64,000 nt of DNA from the IMG/VR virus record IMGVR_UViG_3300027631_002653, positions 1-64,000 of that record, one strand, 5' to 3'. Shown here piece after piece: positions 4,088-53,170 of the stretch. The translations under genes and the position numbers were made by a program. The notes below the pieces were generated by a model. It saw nothing but the letters and a program-made list of their open reading frames with translations. It had not been told where the DNA came from and made no database searches. Within the stretch, counting starts at the first letter, position 1. Each line of letters opens with the position of its first letter. This DNA comes from a virus.

Positions 4088-5071
4088 ATGAAAAGTAGTA
4101 TTATAAAACCTAGGTTAGTGTATAAACCTTTTGAGTATCCTGAAGCCTATGATTTTTGGCTTAAACAACAACAAGCACATTGGTTACACACTGAAGTGCC
4201 TATGATGAGTGATTTGAATGATTGGAAATCAAATCTAAATGAAACGGAAAAAAATATTATTGGCTCGATTTTAAAAGGTTTTGCTCAAACAGAAACTATT
4301 GTAAATGACTATTGGACTCAATTAGTTACAAAATGGTTCCGTAAACCGGAAGTTATTATGATGGCTACAACATTTGGTGCATTTGAAACAATCCATGCTG
4401 AAGCTTATTCATTATTAAACGAAACACTTGGCCTTGAAAACTTTGATGAATTCTTAGAAGATGAAGCAACAATGGCTAAAATTCAAACATTAATGGATGT
4501 AAGAGATCATCATGTTGATGAAAATAATCTTCACGAAATTGCAAAATCATTAGCTATATTCTCAGCATTTACAGAAGGTGTTAATTTGTTCTCTTCATTT
4601 GCAGTATTGTTAAGCTTTAAAATGCGTAATAAACTTAAAGGTGTTGGTCAAATCGTTGAATGGTCTATTAGAGACGAATCACTACACTCAGAAGCTGGAT
4701 GTTGGTTATTTAGAACATTATTACAGGAAAATCCAAAGTTAAAAACACAAGAACTTGAAGCTGCTATTAATGAAGCTGCTTTATTATCTCTTAAACTTGA
4801 GCTTGATTTTATTAAGAAAATTTATGAACTTGGTGACTTAGAAGGTTGTTCACAATATGATTTAGAAAACTTTATTAAAAATAGAGTTAATACCAAATTA
4901 GGTGATTTAGGTTATAAATCAATCATTTCAAATATTGATATGACAGCCGTAGAAAGAATGAAATGGTTTGATCATTTATCAGCCGGTAAACAACACACAG
5001 ATTTCTTTGCTAATAGAGTAACTAATTACTCTAAAGGACACATGAATTGGGATGAATCAGATATTTTTTAA
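4088..5071 (+). CDS. nrdB: Ribonucleotide reductase class Ia beta subunit
   Basis: ETIHAEAYS, EGVNLFSSF, RDESLH, HTDFF..RVTNY. Confidence 0.93.
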   Translation: MKSSIIKPRLVYKPFEYPEAYDFWLKQQQAHWLHTEVPMMSDLNDWKSNLNETEKNIIGSILKGFAQTETIVNDYWTQLVTKWFRKPEVIMMATTFGAFETIHAEAYSLLNETLGLENFDEFLEDEATMAKIQTLMDVRDHHVDENNLHEIAKSLAIFSAFTEGVNLFSSFAVLLSFKMRNKLKGVGQIVEWSIRDESLHSEAGCWLFRTLLQENPKLKTQELEAAINEAALLSLKLELDFIKKIYELGDLEGCSQYDLENFIKNRVNTKLGDLGYKSIISNIDMTAVERMKWFDHLSAGKQHTDFFANRVTNYSKGHMNWDESDIF

Positions 5072-5080
5072 AAATAAACA

Positions 5081-6793
5081 ATGGACAATAATTTAGTAGC
5101 AGATTACACACAATGGGAACGTGGTAAAGATTATCCTGAATTTTTTGATGAAGTAGCTTTATCAACAATATCAAAAGGATATTTAATACCAGGAGAAACT
5201 CCTAAAAAAGCATATAGAAGGGTCGCTCATGCTGTTGCAACGAGATTAAATCGACCTGACTTAGAAAATAAATTTTTTAAATATATTTGGAATGGATGGA
5301 TTGGACTTGCAAGCCCAGTACTCTCAAATACGGGGACAGACAGAGGATTACCGATTAGTTGCTTTGGCATCGATACTCCGGATTCAGTCAGAGGTATTGG
5401 CCTTACAAACGCAGAACTTATGCGCCTCACCTCGTATGGTGGAGGCGTTGGAATCTCCCTCTCAAGAATTAGAGGTCGAGGATCAAACATTACTGGAAAT
5501 GGTAAGTCAGAAGGAGTAGTTCCTTGGGCTAAAATTTATGACTCAACTATTATTGCAACTAATCAAGGTTCAGTACGTAGAGGTGCAGCTTCAGTAAACT
5601 TAGATATTAACCATGTTGATATTAAAGAATTTTTACAAATTCGCAGACCTAAAGGTGATCCTAATAGACAATGTCTAAACTTACACCAATGTGTAGTTGT
5701 AGATGATGCGTTTATGAAGCGATTGAATGATAGGGATAGCGAAGCCATGTCGTTATGGATGGAAATACTTAAATCACGTGTGGAAACGGGTGAACCATAT
5801 GTTATGTTTAAGGATAACGTCAATAAAGATAATCCTTTAGCATATAGAATGAATAACTTAGATGTTTCTATGACTAATATCTGTACTGAAATCACTTTAC
5901 ATACAGACGAGGAACATTCATTTATTTGTTGTTTAAGTTCATTAAATTTAGCTAAATATGATGAATGGAAAAACACAGATGTAATTGAAACTGCAGTTTA
6001 TTTCTTAGATGGTGTAATGGAAGAATTTATCGTTAAAACAAACGGTAAAGATTCAATGATTCGTTCTCATAGACATGCTAAAAAAGGTCGTGCATTAGGT
6101 TTAGGTGTAATGGGGTGGCATACGTTCTTACAACAAAAGAATCTACCATTTAATTCAATAGCTTCAACAGCATGGACACATACTATTTTTAGTGATATTA
6201 AAATGAAAGCTGAAGCAGCATCACGTCAATTAGCAGCTGAATATGGTGAACCATTTTGGTGTAAAGGTACAGGTATGAGAAATACACACTTGTTAGCTAT
6301 TGCCCCTACAGTATCAAATTCACGTTTAAATAACTGTTCAGCAGGTATTGAACCTCAACCAGCCAACGTTTATGTATTTAATGGTGCTAAAGGAACATTT
6401 ATTGTTAAAAATCCTGAATTGGAAACATTACTTAATAATAAAAATAAAAATTCAAATAAAGTTTGGGATCAAATTTTAGCAGATAATGGTTCAGTTGCTA
6501 ACTTACCTAGTGATGTATTGAGTGAAGATGAAAAAGAAGTATTCTTAACATTCCCAGAAATTAATCAGTTAGGTTTAGTACAACAAGCAGCAATTCGCCA
6601 ACGTTATATTGATCAAACTCAATCCTTGAACTTAGCATTTGATCCAACTGATTCACCAAAATGGATTAATCAGGTACATATAGAAGCTCATAAATTAGGA
6701 ATTAAAACACTATATTATCTCCGTACAGACTCAGTAATTAAAGGTGATTTAGGATCTAGAACATCTGAAGATTGCCAAGCCTGTGATGGATAA
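5081..6793 (+). CDS. nrdA: Ribonucleotide reductase class Ia alpha subunit (no ATP cone)
   Basis: PISCF, GGGVG, QGSVRRGA, TNICTE, AIAPT, TLYY, C-terminal CQAC. Confidence 0.93.
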   Translation: MDNNLVADYTQWERGKDYPEFFDEVALSTISKGYLIPGETPKKAYRRVAHAVATRLNRPDLENKFFKYIWNGWIGLASPVLSNTGTDRGLPISCFGIDTPDSVRGIGLTNAELMRLTSYGGGVGISLSRIRGRGSNITGNGKSEGVVPWAKIYDSTIIATNQGSVRRGAASVNLDINHVDIKEFLQIRRPKGDPNRQCLNLHQCVVVDDAFMKRLNDRDSEAMSLWMEILKSRVETGEPYVMFKDNVNKDNPLAYRMNNLDVSMTNICTEITLHTDEEHSFICCLSSLNLAKYDEWKNTDVIETAVYFLDGVMEEFIVKTNGKDSMIRSHRHAKKGRALGLGVMGWHTFLQQKNLPFNSIASTAWTHTIFSDIKMKAEAASRQLAAEYGEPFWCKGTGMRNTHLLAIAPTVSNSRLNNCSAGIEPQPANVYVFNGAKGTFIVKNPELETLLNNKNKNSNKVWDQILADNGSVANLPSDVLSEDEKEVFLTFPEINQLGLVQQAAIRQRYIDQTQSLNLAFDPTDSPKWINQVHIEAHKLGIKTLYYLRTDSVIKGDLGSRTSEDCQACDG

Positions 6794-8576: not shown

Positions 8577-8783
8577 ATGACACGAGAAGAATTCGAAAAC
8601 AAGCACCTTGATTTAGTTAATGATTTAATTCATTTAAATAATGAAATTGGAGAAACATGGGCATACCACCCAGAAAACTCAAATCGTATTGATCCAATTC
8701 ACTACCATGCTATTTTGGTAGAAAAAGCAAATCAATTAGAAGCAAAAATTGATGCCCTTGTAAAACAATATGGCTCAATATAG
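8577..8783 (+). CDS. Hypothetical protein
   Basis: ORF after the promoter. Confidence 0.6.
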   Translation: MTREEFENKHLDLVNDLIHLNNEIGETWAYHPENSNRIDPIHYHAILVEKANQLEAKIDALVKQYGSI

Positions 8784-9363
8784 TTTCATAAAAGAAGGTA
8801 ATATTAAACATAGTCGAGAGGTAGTTATGAAGCATATTAAAAAGCTTCAACCTCTTAACTATAATAAATTTATGTGGTGGCGTACACATACTGATAAAAT
8901 TGTACCACTTGGTAAACGAGCACCACTTAAAGAACGTATTTTAAATGGTGATTTTAATCCATCATCATATTTGTGGCAAGCACAATTTGCTTTATATACT
9001 GCTTTAGATAAACTTGATTTAACTAAACACGATCACCAATTACAAATAGAAATATTAGCTGTTGATCTTGCTCGTTATAAACGTTTAATGGAAGATTTTA
9101 GTAAAGAAGAACCATCACGCTTAGAAGCTTTATATGATGCTTTTACAACATCATTCCAGATTACACGTGAAGAATTAGAAGAAAGATTAATTCAATGGCC
9201 TGGTGATATTATGAGTTTCTATGAATCATGCTATATGTTTATGCGTACTACACCAGCTGAAAATAGAAAAAGCTTCCGTAATCGTCCTACTAAAGTAGTT
9301 CAAGTAGCACAACCCCAAATTAAGCGTAAAAGAGGTCGTCCTCGTAAAAATGAAATGTTTTAA
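8770..9363 (+). CDS. Hypothetical protein with C-terminal AT-hook
   Basis: Ends in KRKRGRPRK. Confidence 0.6.
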   Translation: MAQYSFIKEGNIKHSREVVMKHIKKLQPLNYNKFMWWRTHTDKIVPLGKRAPLKERILNGDFNPSSYLWQAQFALYTALDKLDLTKHDHQLQIEILAVDLARYKRLMEDFSKEEPSRLEALYDAFTTSFQITREELEERLIQWPGDIMSFYESCYMFMRTTPAENRKSFRNRPTKVVQVAQPQIKRKRGRPRKNEMF

Positions 9364-9365
9364 AA

Positions 9366-9515
9366 ATGGTAGAAATAATTAGGCATACTCTTGGGTTTTG
9401 TGGTGATACATGGCATCCAACTCTTTTTACAGTAATTGCTGGTGGGCTTGGATTTTTACCAAGTTTTAATTATATTTATTTCAAATATATTAAGCGTTAT
9501 GAAAAGAAAAATTAA
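9366..9515 (+). CDS. Small membrane peptide (49 aa, not in ORF track)
   Basis: MVEIIRHTLGFCGDTWHPTLFTVIAGGLGFLPSFNYIYF...; fills the gap between 9363 and 9499. Confidence 0.5.
   Translation: MVEIIRHTLGFCGDTWHPTLFTVIAGGLGFLPSFNYIYFKYIKRYEKKN
9448..9476 (+). promoter_or_regulatory. TTGG-N19-TATATT promoter heading the deazaguanine locus
   Basis: TTGG 9448-9451, TATATT 9471. Confidence 0.55.
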
Positions 9516-10296
9516 GGTTTCACACGAAGTTCCGTTTTGTTTATTAAATTATAGTAGAGAGTTTAACGATTATGATTATTGTTTACCTCATTTATTAGAT
9601 CAAAACGAAGAGTACAAAGCATATTTTATACAAGCAAAAGCAGAAGGTCGTTATATTGTAATGGACAATTCACTTCATGAATTGGGTACAGCATACGATA
9701 ATGAGCGTTTAATGTATTGGATAAACGTATTAGAGCCAAATGAATTTATGGTGCCTGATGTATGGGAAAATAAAGTAGCATCAATTGTAAACGCTCGAGC
9801 TTGGTCTAAATATGAACTACCAGAAGGTGTTACTAAAGTAGCAGTTGTTCAAGCAAAGTCATTTGCTGAATCATTAGAATGTACTCACATTTATAAAGAT
9901 TTAGGTTATAAAAAAATTGCATACTCGTATGGTGCTTCTTATTACAATAAAATTGTTGAACATCCAAATAAAAATTTAGGTAAAGCATTAGGTCGTATTA
10001 AAGTAATTACTGATTTGTATAAAAAAGGTATTTTAACACCTTATGATAGAGTACATTTATTAGGATGTCAAGTACCTCAGGAATTTGGTTGGTATCAAGG
10101 TATTGAATGTATCGAATCAATTGATACATCAAATCCAATTATGGCTGCTTTAGAAGGCGAAGCTTATAATTTTTATGGTTTAACTGATAAACCAAAAGCT
10201 AACATGAATGATTATCAAGATATTGCTACTGAAAATGTAGATTTAGATTTAGTTGATAATAATGTTGAAATGTTTAGACTTATTAATAATTTATAA
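9499..10296 (+). CDS. Divergent tRNA-guanine transglycosylase-fold (DpdA-like) protein
   Basis: TGT-like motif series MDNS, PDV, VVQA, RVHLLG, ESIDTS; adjacent to queC/D/E; start moved to ATG 9499. Confidence 0.7.
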   Translation: MKRKIKVSHEVPFCLLNYSREFNDYDYCLPHLLDQNEEYKAYFIQAKAEGRYIVMDNSLHELGTAYDNERLMYWINVLEPNEFMVPDVWENKVASIVNARAWSKYELPEGVTKVAVVQAKSFAESLECTHIYKDLGYKKIAYSYGASYYNKIVEHPNKNLGKALGRIKVITDLYKKGILTPYDRVHLLGCQVPQEFGWYQGIECIESIDTSNPIMAALEGEAYNFYGLTDKPKANMNDYQDIATENVDLDLVDNNVEMFRLINNL

Positions 10297-10299
10297 AAT

Positions 10300-10503
10300 A
10301 TGAATACACAAACTGAATATAAATCTTTATACGAGTATTTAGGTCATCCTGCAGGTTCAGACCTAGGAAAAAAAGTAGCAGAATCCGCTGCAGCTGAAAA
10401 GGTTAGAATTTCTGTAAAAGATGTTAAAAATTCTAAATATGAAGGAAAAATCATGGTTTATCCTGTAGATTGGTTAGATTATTACTTCTCTAATATAAAA
10501 TAA
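10300..10503 (+). CDS. Hypothetical protein
   Basis: Tightly packed ORF. Confidence 0.6.
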   Translation: MNTQTEYKSLYEYLGHPAGSDLGKKVAESAAAEKVRISVKDVKNSKYEGKIMVYPVDWLDYYFSNIK

Positions 10504-10504
10504 T

Positions 10505-10654
10505 ATGAAAACAGAAACAAAAAAATCACCGGATGTAAATCCAGCATTTGAAGAAATGCTTAGAAAAGAATTAGATAAAATTTGGGAAAATCGCTTTAAC
10601 ATAAGCTTGAGAAACCTAGAAATTTTACGTAGATTAGCTAACAAATTATATTAA
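10505..10654 (+). CDS. Hypothetical protein (49 aa, not in ORF track)
   Basis: MKTETKKSPDVNPAFEEMLRKELDKIW...; exactly fills the gap before queC. Confidence 0.55.
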   Translation: MKTETKKSPDVNPAFEEMLRKELDKIWENRFNISLRNLEILRRLANKLY

Positions 10655-10655
10655 T

Positions 10656-11483
10656 ATGAAAAAACAAGCAGTATTATCACTAAGTGGAGGTATGGATAGC
10701 TCTACTTTGCTGCTTCGTCTACTTGCCAATGGCTACGAAGTAACAGCATTATCCTTTGATTATGGTCAAAAACACAACGTTGAGCTTGAACGTGCTCAAT
10801 CATTAGTTGATTATTTAAATTCACAATGTACTGAAAATAATTGTTACGGTGGATGTAAAATTACTTATCAAGTAATTAAATTAGATGGTTTAGCCCAATT
10901 ATTAAATTCATCATTAGTATCAGGTGGTTCTGAAGTACCTGAAGGTCACTATGCTGAAGAAAATATGAAGGCAACTGTAGTTCCAAATCGCAATAAAATA
11001 TTTAGTTCAATTATTCAAGCAGTTGCCTTATCAGTTGCTGAACAAAAGAATACTGAATGTGCTATTGCAATGGGGATACATAGCGGTGACCACAGTGTTT
11101 ATCCTGACTGTAGACAAGAATTTAGAGACATTGATTACCAAGCATTTCTATCAGGTAATTGGGGTGGTGAAAAAGTAATTTATTATACTCCATATCTTGA
11201 TACTGATAAATTTGGTATTTTAGAAGATGGTGCATCATGTTGTGAATGTTTAGGTATTGATTTTGATGAAGTATATTCACGTACAAATACATCTTATAAA
11301 CCAATTAAAATTAATAGGAAATGGTATAGTGATTATAAATCTGCTTCGTCTGTTGAGCGTGTAGAAGCGTTTATTAAATTAGGTCGTCCTGATCCTGCAG
11401 AATATGCTGATGCAAATGGAATTGTAACATGGGAACACGTAGTAAATGAAGTAACTAAAGTATTAGAAAGTCATGGAAACTAA
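10656..11483 (+). CDS. queC: 7-cyano-7-deazaguanine synthase
   Basis: SGGMDS, FDYGQKH, VVPNRN, YPDCR. Confidence 0.92.
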   Translation: MKKQAVLSLSGGMDSSTLLLRLLANGYEVTALSFDYGQKHNVELERAQSLVDYLNSQCTENNCYGGCKITYQVIKLDGLAQLLNSSLVSGGSEVPEGHYAEENMKATVVPNRNKIFSSIIQAVALSVAEQKNTECAIAMGIHSGDHSVYPDCRQEFRDIDYQAFLSGNWGGEKVIYYTPYLDTDKFGILEDGASCCECLGIDFDEVYSRTNTSYKPIKINRKWYSDYKSASSVERVEAFIKLGRPDPAEYADANGIVTWEHVVNEVTKVLESHGN

Positions 11484-11694
11484 GAAAAAACAACCCAAAA
11501 TGAATGTGTGGCAAGAATCACATAAGGAAATTAATTTTGATAAACTTCCTGATCCAAAAAATCACCAACTAATTAGCTTTCTTAAATCAGCAGTTAGAAT
11601 TACAGGTTACCTTGCTTTACCTTTTGGTATTGGACTAGGGGTAACTATTTTAGTTATCAGTGAACTTATAGGAATTATAGAAGAATTAGTATAA
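11473..11694 (+). CDS. Small membrane protein
   Basis: Hydrophobic C-terminus ending ISELIGIIEELV. Confidence 0.6.
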   Translation: METKKKQPKMNVWQESHKEINFDKLPDPKNHQLISFLKSAVRITGYLALPFGIGLGVTILVISELIGIIEELV

Positions 11695-11900
11695 TGGCTA
11701 AACAAAGAAAAAAATATACACCATCAAACATGTATGTTGTAATTAACAAACATGGAGAAGTATTTATAGGATTACAACGAGGTTATCCTGTATATTCTTC
11801 TAATTGGGATGAAGCAAAACCATTAAATAAGGAAAGTACCACTTATTTAATAGAAGAAAAAGGTACTGAATTAATATCCGAAAACGAATTTTATAAATAA
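11694..11900 (+). CDS. Hypothetical protein
   Basis: Stop/start overlap with the previous gene. Confidence 0.55.
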   Translation: MAKQRKKYTPSNMYVVINKHGEVFIGLQRGYPVYSSNWDEAKPLNKESTTYLIEEKGTELISENEFYK

Positions 11901-11905
11901 AAACA

Positions 11906-12154
11906 ATGAAACAACTATTTTATTTCTCCGCAGGGTGGTGTGTACCATGCCAAACCTTAGGTCCTATTATGGATCAAGTATCAACCCAAATCCAAGTACA
12001 AAAATTTAATATTGATTATGAAGCTGATCTTATTACAAAATATGGAGTTAAAAGTATTCCTACTGTAGTACTCGTGGAAAATGGACAAGAAGTACGTAGA
12101 TTTACAGGTGTAAAAAGTTATAATGATATAATTAGATTTGTTAACAATGGGTAG
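11906..12154 (+). CDS. Thioredoxin
   Basis: WCVPC active site, SIPT cis-Pro loop. Confidence 0.88.
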   Translation: MKQLFYFSAGWCVPCQTLGPIMDQVSTQIQVQKFNIDYEADLITKYGVKSIPTVVLVENGQEVRRFTGVKSYNDIIRFVNNG

Positions 12155-12704
12155 TTTTAGATCAACAAAAATATTTGATGGATACAGTTGTGTATTTCGT
12201 CAATGGAAAGCTGAAGGAACACATTGTCAGTTTCTTCATGGTTATGGAGTATCCTTTAAAGTATGGTTCGAAGGTGAATTAGACGAACGTAATTGGGTAT
12301 GGGATTTTGGAGGTATGAAACGTGCCAAAGGTACTATTGATGGTATGAATCCTAAATTATGGATGGATAATATGTTTGACCATACTGTTATTATATCTGA
12401 AGATGATCCATACTTAGAAAATTTTAAGGAAATGTGGAAAGATGGAATTATCCAATTACGAGTAATACCAGCAACAGGAGCCGAACAGTTCGCAAAATAC
12501 ATTTACGAAAAATTAAATACCTTTATTCAAGAAGAAACTAACGGACGTGTAAAAATAGTTCAAGTTGAGTTTAGGGAACATGAAAAAAATACAGCATTTT
12601 ATAAAGAAGATGTTAAACCTTTAGATGTTCAAGCACAGTTATCTAAAAAAGATATGGAAAATTATTTAAATAATTATCGTTCAAATTCTAAATATGAATT
12701 CTAA
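12147..12704 (+). CDS. queD: 6-carboxy-5,6,7,8-tetrahydropterin synthase
   Basis: HCQFLHGY, WDFGGMK, FDHT, GAE, EHEKN; start moved to ATG 12147. Confidence 0.88.
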   Translation: MGSFRSTKIFDGYSCVFRQWKAEGTHCQFLHGYGVSFKVWFEGELDERNWVWDFGGMKRAKGTIDGMNPKLWMDNMFDHTVIISEDDPYLENFKEMWKDGIIQLRVIPATGAEQFAKYIYEKLNTFIQEETNGRVKIVQVEFREHEKNTAFYKEDVKPLDVQAQLSKKDMENYLNNYRSNSKYEF

Positions 12705-13495
12705 TGGAAAAAGAATATAAAAAACCAAGTCGCATTCTCGACTATAATAAAAAATTACCTTTGTTAGAAATCTACCCTTGCATTCAAAGTGAAGGTAGTA
12801 GACAAGGAAGACCAACAATTGCAGTTAGAACAACAGGTTGTACTCACAGATGTTGGTTTGGTGAAGGGGGATGGTGTGATTCTTGGTATACAAGTATTCA
12901 TCCTGAAAAAGGTATTTATACATTTAATGACATTATTAAGGCATATGATGAAAATCCTCATATTACAGAAATGATGTTAACTGGAGGTTCACCTACAATG
13001 CACCCAGATTTAGTAAACGAATTAACCCATTTTGCACATGAAAGAGGCATTTTTATCACTATCGAAACTGAAGGTAGTCATTTTGTTGAAACTGATTATC
13101 CTATCGGTCTTATATCTCTCAGCCCTAAGTTTAGCAATAGCGTTCCTATGGTTGGGGTTCTCACTCCAGCAGGTAAAGAGGTTGATCAAAAAATGGTTGA
13201 CCAACATAATAAATTACGTTTAAATAAAGAAGCAATCACTCAAACCTTAGCTTACCATTCAGATTATCATTACAAACCAGTTTGGGATGGTACTGAAGCA
13301 GGTTTAGCAGAAATTGAAGCCTTTAGGGTTGAAATGAATATCCCTAAAAATAAAACATGGTTAATGCCAGCAGGTGATACTCGTGAAACATTAATTTATA
13401 TGTATCCTATCTCAATTGAAAAATGCATGGAAGTAGGTTATAACTGGACTGGTAGAGATCACATTATTTCTTACGATACAAAGAGAGCAGTTTAA
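12704..13495 (+). CDS. queE: 7-carboxy-7-deazaguanine synthase (radical SAM)
   Basis: IQSEG, RTTGCTHRC...WCDS, LTGGSP, IETEG, SLSPK. Confidence 0.9.
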   Translation: MEKEYKKPSRILDYNKKLPLLEIYPCIQSEGSRQGRPTIAVRTTGCTHRCWFGEGGWCDSWYTSIHPEKGIYTFNDIIKAYDENPHITEMMLTGGSPTMHPDLVNELTHFAHERGIFITIETEGSHFVETDYPIGLISLSPKFSNSVPMVGVLTPAGKEVDQKMVDQHNKLRLNKEAITQTLAYHSDYHYKPVWDGTEAGLAEIEAFRVEMNIPKNKTWLMPAGDTRETLIYMYPISIEKCMEVGYNWTGRDHIISYDTKRAV

Positions 13496-13499
13496 AAAT

Positions 13500-14174
13500 A
13501 TGAAAGACGCGTTAAATCAATTCCCTTATACTTTTACAATTGATTATTCTAATGGATTAAAAGTAATTGTTTATGATAATTTAGATTCTGAAAATTCTTT
13601 TTTGTCAAGAGTTTATATTAAAAAAACAAAAAACCAAAACAAATTAAAATGGGCTCACAATAGTGCTGGAGGACATTGGATTGAGGAAGAATTTATTAAC
13701 AGTGAAGAATTTTATTTACCTTGGGGAGAACATAATATTAAAAGTGATCATTTTTATGTTTATTATTATAAAGGTTTTGCCCCTTATTATATTGAAATTA
13801 CTGATAATAAAACGCAAGAAATAGTTTATAAAGAAGCATTTGATACTCGTCATAAATTAGTTAATTTTACTTTACATAGTAATGATCCAAAAACAATTCA
13901 TACTTGGATGTGTGTTATTGAAAAGTTTAAAAAAGATAATGAATGTCAAATTTCAATTACAAATGATTATCTTAAAGAAAATCAAATGTATGATTTTGTG
14001 GATTGTTATTGGAGCATAGAAGAAAATTTCCAACGTTTTTATGCTGGATATAATATTGGAAGATTTGGAACTGAAAATACTCCTGATTTGTTTCAAAATC
14101 CTGATGGAATTCAAGGTAAAAATGATTTAGAAATTATTGAAGATATATTATATCATTATACTAAAAGTTTATGA
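13500..14174 (+). CDS. Hypothetical protein
   Basis: Long ORF inside the que cluster; weak resemblance to 46490-46939. Confidence 0.55.
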   Translation: MKDALNQFPYTFTIDYSNGLKVIVYDNLDSENSFLSRVYIKKTKNQNKLKWAHNSAGGHWIEEEFINSEEFYLPWGEHNIKSDHFYVYYYKGFAPYYIEITDNKTQEIVYKEAFDTRHKLVNFTLHSNDPKTIHTWMCVIEKFKKDNECQISITNDYLKENQMYDFVDCYWSIEENFQRFYAGYNIGRFGTENTPDLFQNPDGIQGKNDLEIIEDILYHYTKSL

Positions 14175-14827
14175 ACAATGTATTAATGATAATGAATGCT
14201 AGAAATCTATCAGCATTTAAAGAATGTGTTAATAAATTAAATATATCTAAAGTTTGGTTTAAAGGATATCGTGAATTTGAACTTAATGATGAAATAAATA
14301 AATTTATTCAAGAAACAAATTTTGATAATTATTTTATAGTTTCTGATGATTTAGTCATTAATAAAAAAGATTTTGAATTTCTTGAAGACCAATTAAATTA
14401 TTATCCTATAGTAACAGGTTGGGGTGTTTGGAGACAAAATTGGGATTGGACTACTATTCATTTACAAAATAAAATCCATACTTTTAATCAAGGTGATAAG
14501 TTACCTATATTTAAAAAACATTATAATATAGTTAAAACTTATGAGATTGACAGTATGCCTGATGTTATTGAAACTGCATTTACTGGATGGTTTTATACGG
14601 GTATTAGACGTGATATATGGTTAAAATACCCATATCAAACAATGTCAATTAAACCTTGGATGCCGGGAGCATCAACAGATGCTCATTGGTCAAAACGAAT
14701 TTTAAAGGATAATATTTATAAACAAATATGCTTTAAACAAGCTAGAGTATTACATTTATCTTATTCTGGTAAAGATTATGAAGATTTAGATTTTACCGAC
14801 AAACAAATAATCACCGACTTTATATGA
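14171..14827 (+). CDS. Putative GT-A fold glycosyltransferase-like protein
   Basis: YFIVSDDLV (DxD-like), FTGWFYTGIRRDIW, STD and C-terminal VLH. Confidence 0.45.
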   Translation: MNNVLMIMNARNLSAFKECVNKLNISKVWFKGYREFELNDEINKFIQETNFDNYFIVSDDLVINKKDFEFLEDQLNYYPIVTGWGVWRQNWDWTTIHLQNKIHTFNQGDKLPIFKKHYNIVKTYEIDSMPDVIETAFTGWFYTGIRRDIWLKYPYQTMSIKPWMPGASTDAHWSKRILKDNIYKQICFKQARVLHLSYSGKDYEDLDFTDKQIITDFI

Positions 14828-15423
14828 AAAAAATTATATTAATTTTAACATTGATACTAATTTCAGTATCAACATTTGCTCAAACATTAAATGATAGTAT
14901 TCATTGGAATACACCCTATTATACAATTGATTACTCAGAAAAACTTGAACAACCAAAAAATATTTGGTATACAGTAGTTTGTCCTCATGGAATGGCTTCT
15001 AGGGTTGGAATGGAATTTTATGGTGAAGAAGGTATTAAAACCTCAGATAGTAAAGATTATGAAGCTAATGAATGGGATAAAGGTCATATGGTTCCAGCAG
15101 CCTCTTTAAATTGTGATAGAAATATGTTATGGGAAACATTTAGTTATATGAATTGTGCTTTACAACAACAATCTCTTAATCGTGGTGTTTGGAAAAAACT
15201 TGAAATGCAAGAACGTGAATTTTCAAAAGTTAACAATAACGTAAAAGTTTATATTAAAGTAGAATTTGATGCTAATCCAAAACGTGTACCAGCTGGAGCA
15301 GCTATTCCTAAAGGATTTTATAAAGAAATAACAATTGATAAAAGAACTAAATTTTGTTACTATTTTCCAAATATTGCTCCTATAACAAGTGATTTGAACA
15401 CATTTAAATGTAATTGCAGATGA
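14824..15423 (+). CDS. DNA/RNA non-specific endonuclease with signal peptide
   Basis: WDKGHMVPA, LNRGVWKKLE, IPKGFYK; N-terminal signal peptide. Confidence 0.88.
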   Translation: MKKIILILTLILISVSTFAQTLNDSIHWNTPYYTIDYSEKLEQPKNIWYTVVCPHGMASRVGMEFYGEEGIKTSDSKDYEANEWDKGHMVPAASLNCDRNMLWETFSYMNCALQQQSLNRGVWKKLEMQEREFSKVNNNVKVYIKVEFDANPKRVPAGAAIPKGFYKEITIDKRTKFCYYFPNIAPITSDLNTFKCNCR

Positions 15424-15704
15424 ATAAACAACTATTAATTGAAGCTTTAGATAATAAAAAGGATGTAATATTCTTTTTTAATTCTACTAGCTGTAAATCA
15501 TGTTCTGAGGTTAAACCTTTAGTAGAACAATTTGCTAAAACAAAAAATAAATCATTATTTATGGATGTTGTAGAGGGAACTCCCGATTCTGAATATTTAG
15601 AAAAATTTTGTGGAATTGAATTTTACCCAACTTTAATCCTCCTAGAATCGTCAGGTGCGTTAAAACGTTATGTAGGTAAAAATCAAATCAAAAGTATTAT
15701 ATGA
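15420..15704 (+). CDS. Thioredoxin-like protein
   Basis: CKSC, FYPT. Confidence 0.7.
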   Translation: MNKQLLIEALDNKKDVIFFFNSTSCKSCSEVKPLVEQFAKTKNKSLFMDVVEGTPDSEYLEKFCGIEFYPTLILLESSGALKRYVGKNQIKSII

Positions 15705-16213
15705 AAAAACAAATTTTATTTACAGAAAGTGAAATAAAAAATAAAGTAGGTGAAATTGCTCATAATCTTAAAAAAAGAGAACATGATTTTCCTCCCGTAT
15801 TTATATGCGTTTTAAACGGCGCTTTTATGTTTTTTACGGACTTGGTGAAGCGTGTAGGTGAATGCGAAATAGACTTTATACGCGCGAAATCTTACACGGG
15901 TATCACGCAGACTAGCGTCTCAATTTCTAAATCAATTGAAATAGATATTGCTCGAAAAGACGTATACCTAGTAGATGATATCTATGATACTGGGGAAACA
16001 ATGAAAGCATTGATTCAACATTTAAATCTTAACAATCCAAAATCAATCACTCCAATCACATTATTTAAGCGTTGGAGCTCCCACAACTCCGACTTAATTT
16101 ATGGTTTTGAATTAAAAACCGAAACTTTTTTAGTTGGATATGGATTAGATAATGAAAAAGGTCTTCAAAGAAATCAAAAATATATAACAGGTATAGCAGA
16201 TGATGTAAATTAG
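15701..16213 (+). CDS. hpt: Purine (hypoxanthine/guanine-type) phosphoribosyltransferase
   Basis: VLNGAFMFFTDL, AKSY, LVDDIYDTGET, FLVGYGLD...RN. Confidence 0.85.
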   Translation: MKKQILFTESEIKNKVGEIAHNLKKREHDFPPVFICVLNGAFMFFTDLVKRVGECEIDFIRAKSYTGITQTSVSISKSIEIDIARKDVYLVDDIYDTGETMKALIQHLNLNNPKSITPITLFKRWSSHNSDLIYGFELKTETFLVGYGLDNEKGLQRNQKYITGIADDVN

Positions 16214-16224
16214 ATAACATATAC

Positions 16225-16253
16225 TTGGAATACCAAAAGAGGATTAGTATATT
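16225..16253 (+). promoter_or_regulatory. TTGG-N19-TATATT promoter upstream of folE-mazG-like-polB
   Basis: TTGG 16225-16228, TATATT 16248. Confidence 0.65.
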
Positions 16254-16273
16254 ACATTAAAATAAAAAGTTAT

Positions 16274-16969
16274 ATGGAAAATAAAAGACGAAAAAACCAC
16301 ACTGATTTAGAGTGTGTTCAAACAGGTTTCGCTAATGGAGTTGCACCTGGATTCCCACTTACTGAAAAAGAAAAGTGGTCAATGGTTGATGAAGCTGAAG
16401 AAGCATATGGTAAATTCCTAACAGCATTAGGTTGTGATTGGGAAAATGATCCAAATTCAATGGAAACACCTCGCCGTGTAGCTAAAGCTTATGTATTTGA
16501 TTTATGGGCTGGTCGTTATGATGCAATGTCTAATATCACTTCATTCCCTTCAGACGGATATGATGGTATTGTAATTGAAAGAAACATTCCAATTAATTCA
16601 ATGTGTTCGCATCACCACCAAACAATTGGAGGCGTAGTTCATATCGGTTATGTAGTAGGTAAAGATGGACACGTAATTGGATTATCTAAATTAAACCGAA
16701 TTGTAGAATTATTCGGTCGTAGAGGAGCAATTCAAGAACAACTAACATCTGCTATTCACAATGCTGTAAATAAAATTTGTGAAAAAAATAGAGGTGTAAT
16801 TGTTACTGTAGTAGCAACTCACAACTGTGTTTCATGTCGTGGTATTAAACACCAAGGAGCTTCAATGGTTACAACCAAAGCATCAGGTGTGTTTATGGAA
16901 AATGATAATCAAGCACGTAAAGAGTTTTTTGATAGTTTAAAAATTAACAATGGTGGTCACCAAATTTAA
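16274..16969 (+). CDS. folE: GTP cyclohydrolase I
   Basis: ETPRRVAK, SMCSHHH, GLSKLNR, IQEQLT, HNCVSCRG. Confidence 0.93.
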   Translation: MENKRRKNHTDLECVQTGFANGVAPGFPLTEKEKWSMVDEAEEAYGKFLTALGCDWENDPNSMETPRRVAKAYVFDLWAGRYDAMSNITSFPSDGYDGIVIERNIPINSMCSHHHQTIGGVVHIGYVVGKDGHVIGLSKLNRIVELFGRRGAIQEQLTSAIHNAVNKICEKNRGVIVTVVATHNCVSCRGIKHQGASMVTTKASGVFMENDNQARKEFFDSLKINNGGHQI

Positions 16970-16974
16970 TAGTT

Positions 16975-17460
16975 ATGAATAGTAAAGAAAATTACGTACC
17001 GTTTGTAAGCGAGGTTGAAGAGTTCAACACTTTAATGAATAAACCTAACAACTATGTACCCACAATTCCAGAAAATAAAGCTGAATGGGAATTTGTTTAC
17101 AACTTCATTCTCGAGGAACTTGAAGAATATAAACAAGCTTGCGAAAGTGGAAACATCGTTGAGGTTTTGGACGCTTTGTGTGACATTACTTATGTATCCC
17201 TTGGGAACGGTGCTATGCTTCATGGTCTTAAGGATAAAGTTTGGCCAGCGTATATGGAAGTACAGGCGTCAAACCTTTCAAAAGCTTGCTCTACACAAGA
17301 AGAGGCTGAAGAAACTGTACAACTTCGTTCCAAAGAACAAGGCGAACTTTGTCATTATGAACAAGTTGGTGATAAGTACATTGTATATCGTAGCCGAGAC
17401 CGAAAGGTAATGAAAAATGTAAATTATTTTAGACCGAATCTTAAACAATTCTTTGAATAA
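16975..17460 (+). CDS. MazG-like all-alpha NTP pyrophosphohydrolase
   Basis: EELEE...EVLDALCDITYV, EVQASNLSK. Confidence 0.8.
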   Translation: MNSKENYVPFVSEVEEFNTLMNKPNNYVPTIPENKAEWEFVYNFILEELEEYKQACESGNIVEVLDALCDITYVSLGNGAMLHGLKDKVWPAYMEVQASNLSKACSTQEEAEETVQLRSKEQGELCHYEQVGDKYIVYRSRDRKVMKNVNYFRPNLKQFFE

Positions 17461-20060
17461 TGTATCAATCTATCTATTATGATAGGGATACTTACGAATA
17501 CCATTTACGAGATGATGTAAAAGGTTGGAAGACATTTAAATATCAACCAACCCTTTACCAACTTGATCCAGATGGTGAATTTGAGACCCTAGATGGCCAA
17601 AACGTGTCCCCTATTAAAAAGATGGACAACTGGAAGGATCCTAAATATTTTGAAAAGGATGTTGATAAAGATACTCGTGTATTAGTTGACTTTTATTACG
17701 AATCTGATGAAACACCTTCATATCACAATTTAGTTTATCTGGATATTGAGTGTGAGATTGCAGGAGCACTTACACCTGAAAATATTAAAGATCCCAAAGG
17801 TAAAATTACATCTGTTGCTTTATACGATAACAATAGTAAAAAATATTATTGTTTAGTTTTAGATGAACAGAAACTAATGACTGAAGCTAAATCTGAAGGT
17901 AAAGAAGTTATTCCATATAAATCGGAAAAAGATTTATTAAATGGATTTCTCGATGTTTGGATTAAATTAGATCCAACTATTATTTCAGGGTGGAATAGTG
18001 AATTTTTTGATATACCTTATCTTTATTATCGTATTATTAAAGTATTAGGACAAGATTTAGCTAATTATTTATCTCCACTTCAAAAAGTTAAAACAAAAAT
18101 CGTTCAAACTAAAAATGGTTTAGCAGAACACGTAATTGTAGCTGGTCTTAATCATTTAGATTATATGAACTTATTTAAAAAGTTTATTACTAAACAAGAA
18201 TCAAGCTATGCATTAGGGAATATTGGAGAAAAATATGTTAAGTTAGGTAAAATAGAATATCAAGGTTCACTTGACAAATTATTTAGAGAAGATATAGACA
18301 AATTCATTGAATATAATATTCGAGATGTTGAAATTATTGTTGAATTAGAAAAATCACTTAAGTTTATTGAATTAACAGCAACAATTTGTCACCTGTGTCA
18401 TACACCTTATGAAACTATATATTATTCAACTGTATTAAATGAGGGAGCTATTTTAACTTACTTAAAACGTAAAGGTATAGTTTCACCTAATAAACCTACT
18501 ACATATAACCCCGGATTAAAAGAAATTAAGGAAGAATATGCTGGAGGTTATTTAAAAGACCCAATACCAGGTTTATATGAGTGGGTTATTGATTTAGACT
18601 TTACATCACTATATCCTAGTATTATCCGTTCATTAAATATGGGGATAGAAACATTAGTAGGTCGTGTTGTAAATAGAGATAAATTTGATAATCAATGGTC
18701 ATTAAGGGAACTTAAAAAAATGGACCCTAATAAGATTGTTGAAATTGAAAAGATTAATAAAAACCGCTCATTAGTTCGTTCTGAAGTTAAAGTAAAAGAT
18801 ATTGTTTCATTGATTGAAGAAGGTGATTTACTCATATCAGCTCCCGGTGTAATATTCCGTAAAGATAAATCAAGTGTTGTTTGTGAAATATTAGCTGACT
18901 GGTTTTCTAAACGCCAAGAATATAAGGTGTTAATGAAAAAAGCATATAAAGTCGATAATGACCCTATTATGGGTGAGTTTTATAATAAGCGTCAACACGC
19001 GTATAAGATTAAATTAAACGACGTTTACGGTGTATTTGCCATTAATGGTTGGAGATACACTGATGGACATAAATTTATTAGTAAAGCAATTACACTTACT
19101 GGACAAAGATTACTACAGGAAAGTATTAAAAATATGAATGCTTATCTAAATAAAGAGATGAATATTGATAAAGATTCAATTATTACAAGTGATACCGATA
19201 GTTTATTTATTCAATGTTCTAATTTATTATTACATAGACATCCAGATTTAGATTTAAATAATAAAGATGAAGTAATACCTAAAATATTAGAAATAGCTAC
19301 TGAATTACAAAACATGGCTAATAAATTTATAGGTGAATTTTGTCAAGAAGCATTTAACATTAAACCTGATGAACCACACTATTTTGAATTAAAACAAGAG
19401 GTTGTATTAGATAGAGGTTATTTTGCTGGTAAACGTAGATATGCTATTCATATTGTAAATAAGGAAGGTGTAACAACAGATGAGTTAGATATGAAAGGTC
19501 TAGATTTGATGAAATCAAATTTTCCCCCATTATTTAGAAAGTTTGGAGAACATATTTTAAATGAAGTTATGTTTGGTACTAAAAAATCATCTATTGATAA
19601 ACAAATACTTGAATTTAGAGAATCACTTAGAACAGTTGGTTGGGAACAAATTATGAAACCTACTGGATTAAAGAAAATGCAAGAATATATAGCATCAGGC
19701 CCAACAGCAGGTGAAATATTTTCTAAATTAGGTTTAAAATGTCCTATTAATACTAAAGCAGCTATCTATTACAATGATTTATTGCGTTTTAAAGGTTTAG
19801 ATAAAAAACATCCAACATTTCAAATAGGAGATAAAATGTACATTGGATACCTGAAGGAAAATCCGTATCGTATCGAAGTAATAGGATTTAATGGACATAG
19901 TGACCCACCTGAAATTATGAATTTTATAGAAAAATATATTGATAGGGATGGATTGTTTGATTCAGTATTAAAAAATAAATTAGAAGGTATTTATAGCGAT
20001 CTAGGTTGGGGTATGCCTATATTTAACAAAAAGATAAACAAATTTTTTACATTTGAATAA
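17460..20060 (+). CDS. DNA polymerase family B
   Basis: Exonuclease motifs DIEC, WNSEFFDIPY, YNIRD; polymerase motifs DFTSLYPSII, KIKLNDVYG, TSDTDS, KRRYA, KGLD. Confidence 0.95.
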   Translation: MYQSIYYDRDTYEYHLRDDVKGWKTFKYQPTLYQLDPDGEFETLDGQNVSPIKKMDNWKDPKYFEKDVDKDTRVLVDFYYESDETPSYHNLVYLDIECEIAGALTPENIKDPKGKITSVALYDNNSKKYYCLVLDEQKLMTEAKSEGKEVIPYKSEKDLLNGFLDVWIKLDPTIISGWNSEFFDIPYLYYRIIKVLGQDLANYLSPLQKVKTKIVQTKNGLAEHVIVAGLNHLDYMNLFKKFITKQESSYALGNIGEKYVKLGKIEYQGSLDKLFREDIDKFIEYNIRDVEIIVELEKSLKFIELTATICHLCHTPYETIYYSTVLNEGAILTYLKRKGIVSPNKPTTYNPGLKEIKEEYAGGYLKDPIPGLYEWVIDLDFTSLYPSIIRSLNMGIETLVGRVVNRDKFDNQWSLRELKKMDPNKIVEIEKINKNRSLVRSEVKVKDIVSLIEEGDLLISAPGVIFRKDKSSVVCEILADWFSKRQEYKVLMKKAYKVDNDPIMGEFYNKRQHAYKIKLNDVYGVFAINGWRYTDGHKFISKAITLTGQRLLQESIKNMNAYLNKEMNIDKDSIITSDTDSLFIQCSNLLLHRHPDLDLNNKDEVIPKILEIATELQNMANKFIGEFCQEAFNIKPDEPHYFELKQEVVLDRGYFAGKRRYAIHIVNKEGVTTDELDMKGLDLMKSNFPPLFRKFGEHILNEVMFGTKKSSIDKQILEFRESLRTVGWEQIMKPTGLKKMQEYIASGPTAGEIFSKLGLKCPINTKAAIYYNDLLRFKGLDKKHPTFQIGDKMYIGYLKENPYRIEVIGFNGHSDPPEIMNFIEKYIDRDGLFDSVLKNKLEGIYSDLGWGMPIFNKKINKFFTFE

Positions 20061-21227: not shown

Positions 21228-23137
<1,910 letters not shown>

Positions 23138-27534: not shown

Positions 27535-28980
27535 ATGAATAATAGTTTTAAATATCTGCCAAAAGAGCAGCGTAAAAAAATTCTACTCATCTGTGATGAC
27601 ATCAGAGTCCATTCAGGGGTAGCAACAGTAGGAAGAGAAATAGTAATTCAAACCTCTCAACATTTTAATTGGGTTAATATTGGTGGAGCTATTAAACATC
27701 CCGAAGAAGGTAAACGTTTAGATTTATCTCAATCAACCAACGAAGCAATAGGAATAACAGATTCCTCTGTTACAATGTATCCTGTAAATGATTATGGTAA
27801 TCCTGATATTTTAAGGAATCTTATCAAATTTGAAAAACCAGATGCGATTATGTTAATTACAGATCCTCGTTATTTCCTTTGGTTATTTGCTATGGAAAAT
27901 GAAATTCGTAAATCAATTCCAATTACTTATTTAAATATTTGGGATGATTATCCAGCACCTTTATATAATAAACCTTATTATGAAGCTTGTGATTTATTGA
28001 TGGGGATTTCTAAACAAACTGTAAACATTAATAAACTGGTATTAGACGATAAATCTAATAGTAGAATTGTTAAATATGTTCCTCATGGATTAAATGATAA
28101 AAATATATTTCCTATTGATTCTAATCATGAAAAATGGAGCGAACTTCAGGAATTTAAAAAACAATTATTTAAGGGTAAACAATATGAATTTGTTTTATTA
28201 TTTAACTCAAGAAATATTAGACGTAAACAAATTCCAGATACAATGTTAGCTTATAGGTATTTTATTGATCAATTACCAATTGAACAAGCTAAAAAATGTT
28301 GTTTATTACTTCATACAGAATTAGTAACTGAACACGGAACTGATCTTCCAGCAGTACAAGAATTATTATTAAATGGTGAGCAATATAATGTTGTTTTTAC
28401 AAATCAAGTATTTAATAATTATCAGATGAATTTATTATATAATAGTACTGATTGTCAAATTCAATTAACATCAAATGAAGGGTGGGGATTAAGTTTAACT
28501 GAAGCTATGTTAGTAGGTAATCCAATTATTGCTAACGTAACAGGTGGTATGCAAGATCAAATGCGTTTTGAATTTGAAGATGGTACTTGGATTGATTTTG
28601 ATGCTGATTTCCCTTCAAATCATAGAGGTACAATTAAAAAGCACGGTGAGTGGGCCTTCCCCGTTTACCCAACCTCCCGCTCAATTGTAGGTTCCCCTCC
28701 AACACCTTATATTTACGATGATAGATGCGAATCAGAAGATGCAGCTGAACAAATTATGGCTGTTTATTCTTTAAGTAAAGAAGAACGTAAAGCTAAAGGT
28801 TTAAAAGGTAGAGAATGGGCATTAAGTGATGAAGCTGGATTTACAGGAGAACATCAAGGTAAAAGAGTTATTGAGGCATTTGATGAATTATTTGCTACTT
28901 GGAAACCAAGAGAAAAATTTGAATTAATTGATGTTAATGAAGTAAAAGATAGAGTTATAAACCATAAATTATTATATTAA
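27535..28980 (+). CDS. GT-B (GT4-like) glycosyltransferase
   Basis: HSGVA, VPHG, RNIRRKQ, NEGWGLSLTEAM. Confidence 0.85.
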   Translation: MNNSFKYLPKEQRKKILLICDDIRVHSGVATVGREIVIQTSQHFNWVNIGGAIKHPEEGKRLDLSQSTNEAIGITDSSVTMYPVNDYGNPDILRNLIKFEKPDAIMLITDPRYFLWLFAMENEIRKSIPITYLNIWDDYPAPLYNKPYYEACDLLMGISKQTVNINKLVLDDKSNSRIVKYVPHGLNDKNIFPIDSNHEKWSELQEFKKQLFKGKQYEFVLLFNSRNIRRKQIPDTMLAYRYFIDQLPIEQAKKCCLLLHTELVTEHGTDLPAVQELLLNGEQYNVVFTNQVFNNYQMNLLYNSTDCQIQLTSNEGWGLSLTEAMLVGNPIIANVTGGMQDQMRFEFEDGTWIDFDADFPSNHRGTIKKHGEWAFPVYPTSRSIVGSPPTPYIYDDRCESEDAAEQIMAVYSLSKEERKAKGLKGREWALSDEAGFTGEHQGKRVIEAFDELFATWKPREKFELIDVNEVKDRVINHKLLY

Positions 28981-28981
28981 G

Positions 28982-30722: not shown

Positions 30723-30723
30723 T

Positions 30724-32327: not shown

Positions 32328-32329
32328 AA

Positions 32330-33130: not shown

Positions 33131-33136
33131 TATAAT

Positions 33137-34965: not shown

Positions 34966-34969
34966 TAAT

Positions 34970-52890: not shown

Positions 52891-53170
52891 AGCAACACTT
52901 GAACGATTGGATGATGATGATTGGTATATCTTAAAACGAAAACCACTCCCATTATCAGCAGAAACTCTACTTAAATTAGGTAGGTGCTGCGGGAATAAAT
53001 GCTTAAATTGTCCATACAAACCAAAACATACCATAGGAAATGAAAATATTCACTTTGACCACGAAAGCCAAATCACAATTAGACAAACTAATGGTGGAGG
53101 AACAATGCACCGAAGATCATTTTTTAAGAGTATCAGTAAAAGGTGGAGGTTGCTCTGGTCTAACTTATGA
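52883..53170 (+). CDS. Cys-rich small protein (DUF5522-like)
   Basis: LLKLGRCCGNKCLNCPY. Confidence 0.55.
   Translation: MDRATLERLDDDDWYILKRKPLPLSAETLLKLGRCCGNKCLNCPYKPKHTIGNENIHFDHESQITIRQTNGGGTMHRRSFFKSISKRWRLLWSNL

Follow-up and report, generated by a model that had tools for sequence, protein, structure and literature searches.

A predicted DpdA3-type 7-deazaguanine DNA-hypermodification module with a linked purine phosphoribosyltransferase and MazG-like enzyme in an uncultured marine myophage

We have analysed a stretch of 64,000 nucleotides (hereafter, the window) from the IMG/VR record IMGVR_UViG_3300027631_002653, whose parent contig of 75 kb has a CheckV completeness of ~46%. Judging from its sequence, the window carries a DpdA3-type 7-deazaguanine DNA-hypermodification module (Table 1) with a gene set of known type, rather than a new kind of system. 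The explanation that we favour, with a probability of about 0.5, combines sequence comparisons and structural models. FolE, QueD, QueE and QueC would convert GTP into preQ0, and DpdA3 would put the 7-deazaguanine in the place of guanine in DNA, working at the replication fork or close behind it, a step to which we give roughly even odds. The purine phosphoribosyltransferase (PRTase) would be an optional helper, turning the expelled guanine, a competitor for re-insertion, into GMP; this would refill the GTP used by FolE and pull the exchange to completion. Host Hpt or Gpt would do the same job in relatives without the PRTase, and the MazG-like enzyme, whose translation is coupled to that of PolB, would clean the deoxynucleoside triphosphate (dNTP) pool.

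The source of the window is an uncultured marine myophage, kin of Flavobacterium phage immuto. The guanine plus cytosine content is ~30% and all annotated open reading frames (ORFs) lie on the plus strand. The locus gave zero matches to cultured phages by megablast. Two sets of IMG/VR loci served to survey its neighbourhood, 80 with DpdA3 and 77 with the MazG-like gene as the anchor, together with five near-complete relatives (genomes G001-G005, loci L088-L092; 92-100% complete). The gene order of the window was seen again in more than 100 IMG/VR loci and the arrangement is therefore not due to chance. It runs from RecA-like, FEN, DnaB, NrdB and NrdA, through an AT-hook protein, DpdA3, a small ORF and QueC further on, to Trx, QueD, QueE, the PRTase (where present), FolE, the MazG-like gene and PolB. 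The nrdAB genes, which a first-pass annotation of the sequence had placed upstream, are part of a conserved replication and nucleotide block that is syntenic in related loci. All genes listed by that annotation were confirmed in place by Pfam and PHROG scans or, for the ORF with the tRNA-guanine transglycosylase (TGT) fold, by AlphaFold/Foldseek. A sequencing-run search found the carrier sequences as Illumina-derived contigs only, from marine, freshwater and riverine metagenomes and metatranscriptomes; it returned no raw or native long reads, and base modification is unreadable from contigs.

The TGT-fold ORF had zero Pfam hits, and its structure was modelled from 99 diverse homologues. The AlphaFold (AF2) model had a predicted local distance difference test score (pLDDT) of 97.7 and matched bacterial TGT and the structure 7ui4 of DpdA, an insertase of preQ0 into DNA, with a Foldseek probability of 1.0 (query template-modelling score, TMq, 0.62-0.68 for TGT), so that the fold had been read correctly. 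By tblastn, the protein was ~35% identical to CP220 gp056 (E 2e-35) and to the "DNA guanine transglycosylase" of immuto_2-6A (E 8e-45), and the profile of the window's family matched the CP220 and immuto proteins at E 1e-84 to 1e-110. Among viral models, phiST M4SLA5 was matched with a template-modelling (TM) score of 0.83. These homologies and the model place the ORF, among the DpdA subfamilies, in the DpdA3 subfamily defined in 2023 by Hutinet, Cui et al., whose founders are phiST CGPG_00065, CP220 and immuto_2-6A (PMC10516641). The three phages known to have 100% of their G replaced carry DpdA3: CP220 with 2′-deoxy-7-amido-7-deazaguanosine (dADG), phiST with 2′-deoxy-7-deazaguanosine (dDG) and immuto_2-6A with fdPreQ1 (PMC10516641). 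Asp209, within SIDTSNP, was invariant in 99 DpdA3 sequences, and the DpdA3 segment HLLGc..PqEF..siDTSnP aligned with HLLGIARPESF..SIDSTTP of DpdA 7ui4, pointing to a shared catalytic Asp motif.

In metagenomes, DpdA3 formed 3202 clusters at 90% identity and 1286 at 50% identity. Its only fusion partners were homing-endonuclease modules and DpdN-type formyltransferases, which are silent on the level (DNA or nucleotide) of its substrate. Some metagenomic DpdA3 gene calls (P0125, P0160) were joined to GIY-YIG/NUMOD homing-endonuclease modules, which suggests that mobile endonucleases insert at dpdA3; P0171 and P0179 were genuine DpdA3-formyltransferase (DpdN-type) fusions. We have dropped net charge and isoelectric point (pI) as a proxy for DNA binding: the median pI was 5.6 for DpdA3 versus 5.1 for the DNA-acting VpKK5 DpdA1, with no discrimination between the two.

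The protein that mostly adjoins DpdA3 gave zero Pfam, PHROG and NCBIfam hits, and a protein atlas search returned sub-threshold leads only. RGRP, the core of its C-terminal AT-hook, lay within the last 40 residues in 50 of 55 orthologues. In L018, L022 and L028 the gene is found downstream of dpdA3 and not upstream; adjacency on either side in different loci shows that the pairing outlives rearrangement. The protein is thus a possible DNA-binding or DNA-targeting partner of DpdA3. A predicted complex of the two (score 0.04, mark 0.32) counts neither way. As for the small ORF after dpdA3, 28 of 40 sequences of its family end in D[DE]LPF, a tail borne by longer members (e.g., L032:10841-11098), with the window copy lacking it; this tail presumably resembles the C-terminal tip of the bacterial single-stranded DNA-binding protein (SSB).

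All four enzyme families of preQ0 synthesis were found by Pfam and PHROG, and FolE, QueD, QueE and QueC are predicted to turn GTP into a free 7-deazaguanine base. The window QueC was 66% identical to that of immuto_2-6A. Against TIGR00364 it scored 115.8 bits (cut-off 150.3), covering profile positions 1-171 of 201. The alignment displayed SGGMDS, YGQKH..E, VPNRN and YPDC, the canonical QueC signatures being SGGxDS, YxQxHxxE, VPxRN and YPDC (PF06508 cluster 1, PMC13329287). The C-terminal Zn-binding CxxCxxC motif was missing from the window and immuto QueC and present in VpKK5 QueC; the C-terminus in the window and in immuto_2-6A is different from, and longer than, the canonical one. Despite the lost Cys motif, QueC function is probably retained, since immuto needs preQ0 to reach fdPreQ1 (formyl-preQ1). 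In agreement with the first-pass annotation, we found zero QueF, QueA and QueG family matches across the 75-kb contig (~46% of the genome), and QueF was likewise not found in any of the five near-complete relatives. The QueC identity to immuto and the lack of QueF make preQ0 the most likely base. Two overlapping accessory ORFs downstream of queE had zero Pfam or PHROG hits, the first showing a weak match, far below the cut-off, to the autotransporter heptosyltransferase TIGR04414 (E 5e-6). These ORFs might modify the base further, or they might be morons with no link to it.

We have then considered the PRTase encoded directly upstream of folE. The protein matched the hypoxanthine-guanine-xanthine phosphoribosyltransferase (HGXPRT) structure 4qri at E 5e-25, with the phosphoribosyl pyrophosphate (PRPP) and purine motifs aligned. 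The VDDIYDTGET motif, the SY loop, the Lys and FLVGYGLD were all kept in the alignment to 4qri and to Hpt 4rqa. Its score against TIGR01203 was 112.5 bits (cut-off 150), and we have filed it as a divergent, Hpt-type member. Across 73 distinct QueE-to-MazG intervals, a PRTase was present in 65 (89%), namely 51 of Gpt type and 14 of Hpt type, and absent from 8. In 54 of 59 cases no more than 150 bp separated the PRTase from FolE. The Gpt-type protein that fills the same position in most relatives (immuto26A_60 type) matched xanthine-guanine phosphoribosyltransferase (XGPRT) and archaeal GpT structures. PF00156 was missing from 3 of the 5 near-complete relatives, which retain DpdA3, the que genes, MazG and PolB, and no PRTase was found in the CP220 genome, although 100% of its G is replaced.

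The association extends to cultured phages. A large share of the Gpt-type matches fell in phages with deazaguanine genes, e.g., immuto, phiST and its kin, and PA5oct, the latter reported to carry a deazaguanine system (PMC7824862). A Gpt-like domain also forms the N-terminal part of the "GTP cyclohydrolase" gene in VpKK5-like Vibrio, Stenotrophomonas, Pseudomonas and Sphingomonas phages. These PRTase-FolE fusions of ~300 aa (L084:6998-7900, Vibrio phage VpKK5; L085:6971-7864, Pseudomonas phage Baskent_P4_1) have intact PRGG, DDIIDSG and FPWE motifs, and their carriers encode a longer, TGT-annotated transglycosylase of the DpdA1 type. By its domain composition, the fusion serves as a Rosetta stone that ties purine salvage to the synthesis of deazaguanine in DpdA1-type phages. 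The literature searched held neither this fusion nor any mention or explanation of the PRTase of deazaguanine clusters. The PRTase is therefore tied to FolE and deazaguanine synthesis generally and not to complete replacement, given its fusion in DpdA1-type phages and its absence from three of the five relatives and from CP220.

The Asp of DDxxD(T/S)G was kept in all aligned copies (the window Hpt-type and four Gpt-type proteins). In hypoxanthine-guanine phosphoribosyltransferase (HGPRT) this Asp acts on N7, an atom missing from 7-deazapurines. The most likely role of the PRTase is that of a frequent but dispensable guanine-salvage helper, recycling the guanine expelled by DpdA3. This reading follows from the interchange of Hpt and Gpt, whose common trait is only 6-oxopurine salvage, from the retention of the N7-directed Asp, and from the dispensability of the gene where a host enzyme could substitute. 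The first-pass annotation had instead made the PRTase the entry point of preQ0 into nucleotides, an assignment that the distribution, the DpdA1-type fusions and the canonical guanine/hypoxanthine motifs speak against. The idea has a precedent in TubE, a purine-type PRTase that uses 7-carboxy-7-deazaguanine (CDG) and PRPP (PMC6112128), and a TubE-like deazaguanine PRTase is a possible but unlikely alternative.

The MazG-like protein scored 34.3 bits against PRA-PH (cut-off 21.3). Its EELEE and D..D motifs (E47, E48, E51, D66 and D70) were invariant, and it has a conserved C-terminal extension with Cys/His. The gene is closely coupled to the polymerase gene: as the first-pass annotation had noticed, its stop overlaps the PolB start, the two sharing one base (TAATG, 17458-17462). 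Across loci, the MazG-like protein was 72-89% identical, compared with 52-76% for DpdA3 and 38-91% for PolB, and identity to the immuto_2-6A NTP-PPase was 78%. We found 6863 metagenomic clusters at 90% identity, the best 120 of which were at least 84% identical; copies overall ranged from 72 to 96%. Among the MazG-anchored loci, 36 had 8 kb or more of sequence upstream, and que genes were present in every one of these; the count overstates independence because the loci are syntenic kin. A generic phage gene unlinked to que was considered and dropped, the close subfamily having never been seen without que in these kin loci. The co-occurrence of both accessory genes with que was thus borne out (PRTase, 65/73 intervals; MazG-like, 36/36 loci), neither being found in relatives without que. 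A MazG-type gene stands next to FolE in three lineages: the clade of the window, immuto and phiST.

A search of the MazG-like sequence against the PDB gave zero hits. Its model (pLDDT 85.8) had as best solved match DR2231 of Deinococcus, a dUTP-specific MazG-like pyrophosphatase (Foldseek E 7e-3, probability 1; VIA Z 8.6 over 124 residues), at ~20% identity, which does not fix the substrate. The trimeric-type dUTPase (PF00692) was found in 0 of the 5 near-complete relatives. The economical reading is that the MazG-like protein may serve as the phage's dUTPase beside the polymerase. The likeliest substrate would be dUTP, because the relatives lack a trimeric-type dUTPase and the closest structure is DR2231. 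The dGTP-depleting role that had been proposed for it gained no support from these comparisons.

Concerning the polymerase, the best cultured match of PolB was that of Microcystis phage Mel-JY01 (36% identity). The replicases of DpdA3 phages belong to different families: PolB in the window's clade and in CP220, PolA in immuto and DnaE in phiST. For this reason no polymerase is dedicated to the DpdA3 system, PolB being the replicase of the lineage, and the adapted PolB suggested by the first-pass annotation found no support. A dedicated enzyme would also be unneeded, as polymerases generally accept 7-deaza-dGTP analogues well.

That DpdA3 acts at the DNA level is in line with the catalytic motif common to DpdA3 and DpdA, with the AT-hook protein beside DpdA3 and with the presumably SSB-like D[DE]LPF tail in the family of the small ORF after it. 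Several points weigh against the explanation that we favour. To our knowledge, complete replacement is otherwise known only in pre-replicative systems (T4 5-hydroxymethylcytosine, hmC; SPO1 5-hydroxymethyluracil, hmU; S-2L 2-aminoadenine, dZ; PBS1 deoxyuridine, dU). DpdA3 has P-loop kinases or an HD hydrolase next to it in CP220, immuto and phiST. The MazG-like protein is more conserved than DpdA3 and PolB and is FolE-adjacent in three lineages, and a generic dUTPase would need less; its ~20% identity to DR2231 is too low to fix the substrate and leaves room for a dGTP-directed activity. The PRTase score below the Hpt equivalog cut-off of NCBI makes an altered specificity possible. Finally, post-replicative insertion by DpdA3 is what the authors who defined the subfamily propose, but no DpdA3 has been shown to act on DNA and their tests in E. 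coli failed (PMC10516641).

The main rival is an exchange at the level of free nucleotides, an account that we consider rather unlikely. Here DpdA3 would be a TGT-fold deoxynucleotide or deoxynucleoside transglycosylase working on free dGMP, dG or dGTP, and not a DNA enzyme. The MazG-like protein (in CP220, the HD hydrolase) would degrade dGTP to dGMP or deoxyguanosine, at once removing the canonical precursor and supplying DpdA3 with its substrate. A small P-loop kinase of the AAA_28 type and host kinases would rebuild the triphosphate, any polymerase would incorporate it, 7-deaza-dGTP analogues being established as good substrates, and the PRTase would recycle the guanine. Such a scheme would accommodate the complete G replacement of DpdA3 phages, the inactivity of DpdA3 in the E. 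coli DNA assays and the ADG nucleoside reported in infected cells (PMC10516641).

The gene neighbourhoods bear on this scheme from both sides. In CP220 (L002:10937-13430), DpdA3 lies between an HD+AAA_33 fusion and an AAA_28 kinase, and every immuto-type locus seen has DpdA3, DpdN, an AAA_28 kinase and QueF; homology links the kinases of CP220 and immuto (32% identity, E 3e-19). An AAA_18 P-loop protein is encoded directly upstream of DpdA3 in phiST. An AAA_28 (NadR-kinase-like) protein of 176-184 aa was present in all five near-complete relatives, but it stood beside cupin, oxidoreductase or terminase genes, an uninformative context tens of kb from DpdA3, and was not on the 75-kb contig. AAA_28 homologues also occurred in 89 Streptomyces phage records, none of them among the DpdA3 matches. 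The universal, very conserved and PolB-coupled MazG-like gene would suit a supplier of dGMP, yet its nearest structure is a dUTPase, and neither the PRA-PH nor the MazG family was matched in CP220. In addition, DpdA3 in the window's clade has a companion with a DNA-binding AT-hook, and mononucleotides are not known as substrates of any TGT-fold enzyme.

The first-pass annotation had put forward another pre-replicative route, in which the PRTase joins preQ0 and PRPP, kinases and NrdAB carry the product on to the deoxy-diphosphate, the MazG-like enzyme removes dGTP and an adapted PolB incorporates d-preQ0TP. With TubE, clustered with FolE, QueD and QueE homologues and producing the CDG ribonucleotide (PMC6112128), with a PRTase beside FolE in most related intervals and below the equivalog cut-off, and with NrdAB nearby, this route has its analogues, but it is highly improbable: the PRTase is missing from three of five relatives and from the fully modified CP220, interchanges between Hpt and Gpt families that have 6-oxopurine salvage in common, forms FolE fusions in DpdA1-type phages and retains the N7-acting Asp, the universally present DpdA3 would be left without a role, and no polymerase family is specific to DpdA3 phages. 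The general idea of a pre-replicative route may still hold, with little support for an entry through the PRTase or for an adapted polymerase. If replacement were indeed pre-replicative, DpdA3 would be a likelier route for it than the PRTase.

For how DpdA3 phages come to replace 100% of their G, post-replicative exchange is the only published proposal. The comparative data, i.e., the PRTase with FolE, the MazG-like gene tied to the cluster and polymerase, and the kinases or HD protein beside DpdA3, make this question assayable. With ~3200 DpdA3 and ~6900 MazG-like clusters at 90% identity, the family is very abundant in marine metagenomes, so that phage DNA with all of its G modified may be common in the sea. 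If so, this bears on restriction and CRISPR evasion and on sequencing bias. Should the nucleotide-level exchange be true, complete G replacement in DpdA3 phages would be pre-replicative, with the PRTase closing a loop from guanine to GTP to deazaguanine.

Table 1. Predicted genes of the module and of its surroundings in the window
Feature	Position	Strand	Support and remarks
nrdB, class I ribonucleotide reductase	4088-5071	+	Pfam Ribonuc_red_sm E 3e-65
nrdA, class I ribonucleotide reductase	5081-6793	+	Pfam Ribonuc_red_lgC E 1e-102
AT-hook protein, 197 aa, no known family	8770-9363	+	C-terminal RGRPRK; mostly directly adjoins dpdA3
dpdA3, minimal TGT-fold (TIM-barrel) 7-deazaguanine transglycosylase, 265 aa	9499-10296	+	phrog_19058 E 7e-41
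Small ORF after dpdA3, 67 aa	10300-10503	+	Orthologues in 39 loci
queC, preQ0 synthase-type	10656-11483	+	Pfam QueC E 3e-36
Thioredoxin-like, between queC and queD	11906-12154	+	WCVPC motif (read from translation); orthologues in most related loci
queD, 6-carboxytetrahydropterin (CPH4) synthase, PTPS fold	12138-12704	+	Pfam PTPS E 1e-15; phrog_2389 E 2e-39
queE, CDG synthase, radical SAM	12704-13495	+	Pfam Radical_SAM E 3e-7; phrog_2076 E 5e-45
Two overlapping accessory ORFs between queE and PRTase	13500-14174, 14171-14827	+	Orthologues only in L006-L008, L012
Endonuclease_NS, non-specific DNA/RNA endonuclease	14824-15423	+	Pfam E 8e-21; hydrophobic signal-like N-terminus
Thioredoxin	15414-15704	+	Pfam E 1e-8
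PRTase, Hpt-type 6-oxopurine, directly upstream of folE	15701-16213	+	Pfam Pribosyltran (PF00156) E 9e-21
folE, GTP cyclohydrolase I, first pathway step	16274-16969	+	Pfam GTP_cyclohydroI E 3e-43
MazG-like all-alpha NTP pyrophosphohydrolase	16975-17460	+	Pfam PRA-PH (PF01503) E 3e-8; phrog_671 E 2e-25
PolB, family B replicative DNA polymerase	17460-20060	+	Pfam DNA_pol_B E 2e-33; exonuclease domain E 9e-21

Other genes of the window lie in or beyond the module. The non-specific endonuclease and the thioredoxin preceding the PRTase are variable inserts whose presence and position differ among loci; Endonuclease_NS lies inside the que cluster of the window and upstream of dpdA3 in other loci. 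An IscU/NifU scaffold (E 6e-52) with a neighbouring ORF, and a peroxiredoxin, are encoded at 52507-53372 and 48579-49187, and two thioredoxins are found elsewhere. The ORF beside IscU/NifU presumably recalls an IscA-like protein, having a GGGCSG motif in its translation. Together, these proteins could possibly support the 4Fe-4S radical-SAM enzyme QueE and the ribonucleotide reductase. A sugar-modification block at 27535-35767 and 44675-46321 contains two GT1 glycosyltransferases, a NAD-dependent epimerase/dehydratase and methyltransferases, with a carbamoyltransferase further on; past this block there is a 2-oxoglutarate (2OG)-Fe(II) oxygenase at 46932-47594.

We have compared the locus with known systems, beginning with those that are most distant. 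The Z-genome cyanophage S-2L reportedly achieves complete replacement through PurZ, MazZ and DatZ, that is, by combining a MazG-type enzyme, a dNTP-destroying hydrolase and nucleotide-level synthesis. This is the logic that the first-pass annotation had invoked, but the window lacks a PurZ-like synthase and the nearest structure of its MazG-like protein is a dUTPase. The roles of dNTP destruction and nucleotide synthesis have as candidates the MazG-like protein, the CP220 HD protein, and DpdA3 with the P-loop kinases, with substrates that are not assignable in silico. DpdA3 phages, with their PolB, PolA or DnaE, show no dedicated or co-evolving polymerase of the kind seen for T4 hmC and S-2L dZ. 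The tubercidin and toyocamycin clusters (TubE/ToyH; PMC6112128) resemble the window in having a PF00156 PRTase with GTP cyclohydrolase I and QueD and QueE homologues. Unlike the window, they have no transglycosylase and their products are free nucleoside antibiotics (10.64898/2026.04.15.718813); the window's cluster contains DpdA3 and falls outside the rule for transglycosylase-free clusters given in the same work.

The DpdA1-type Queuovirinae (VpKK5 and relatives; the 9g and CAjan group) have, like the window, FolE, QueD, QueE and QueC, a TGT-fold transglycosylase beside the polymerase and a Gpt-like PRTase linked to FolE, in their case as an N-terminal fusion. In contrast, their transglycosylase has 307 aa and is unmatched by the DpdA3 profile, and no MazG-like gene is found in the cluster. 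Replacement is partial in this group, and action at the DNA level was shown for CAjan and 9g (as cited in PMC10516641).

Closer to the window, CP220 (Firehammervirus) has a DpdA3 homologue (~35% identity), que genes and a T4-like PolB replicase. It differs in having no PRTase and no PRA-PH/MazG match genome-wide, and in the HD+AAA_33 protein and AAA_28 kinase that flank its DpdA3. The theme of this neighbourhood is nucleotide metabolism, as would fit a route through the nucleotide pool. The DNA of CP220 is 100% dADG and its QueC homologue was proposed to stop at ADG (as cited in PMC10516641). Cellulophaga phage phiST (FolE, QueD, QueE, DpdL and DpdA3; dDG) shares with the window the order FolE, MazG-type NTP-PPase, DpdA3 and polymerase, as well as the DpdA3 structure (TM 0.83). 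However, it has the decarboxylase DpdL in place of QueC, a MazG of PF03819 and a DnaE-type polymerase, and its Gpt-type PRTase, although present, lies ~17 kb from the cluster.

The closest comparison is with immuto_2-6A (PMC10516641). This phage differs from the window in the low identity of its DpdA3 (~35%), in the QueF, DpdN and AAA_28 kinase beside DpdA3, with formyl-preQ1 as the product, in having a Gpt-type instead of an Hpt-type PRTase, and in replicating with PolA instead of PolB. The remainder of the module is shared to a large extent, with identities of 73% for QueD, 66% for QueE, 66% for QueC, 64% for FolE and 78% for the MazG-like protein. In both phages a PRTase is encoded beside FolE, and both encode GroES and GroEL (21228-23137 in the window), the GroEL proteins being 61% identical.

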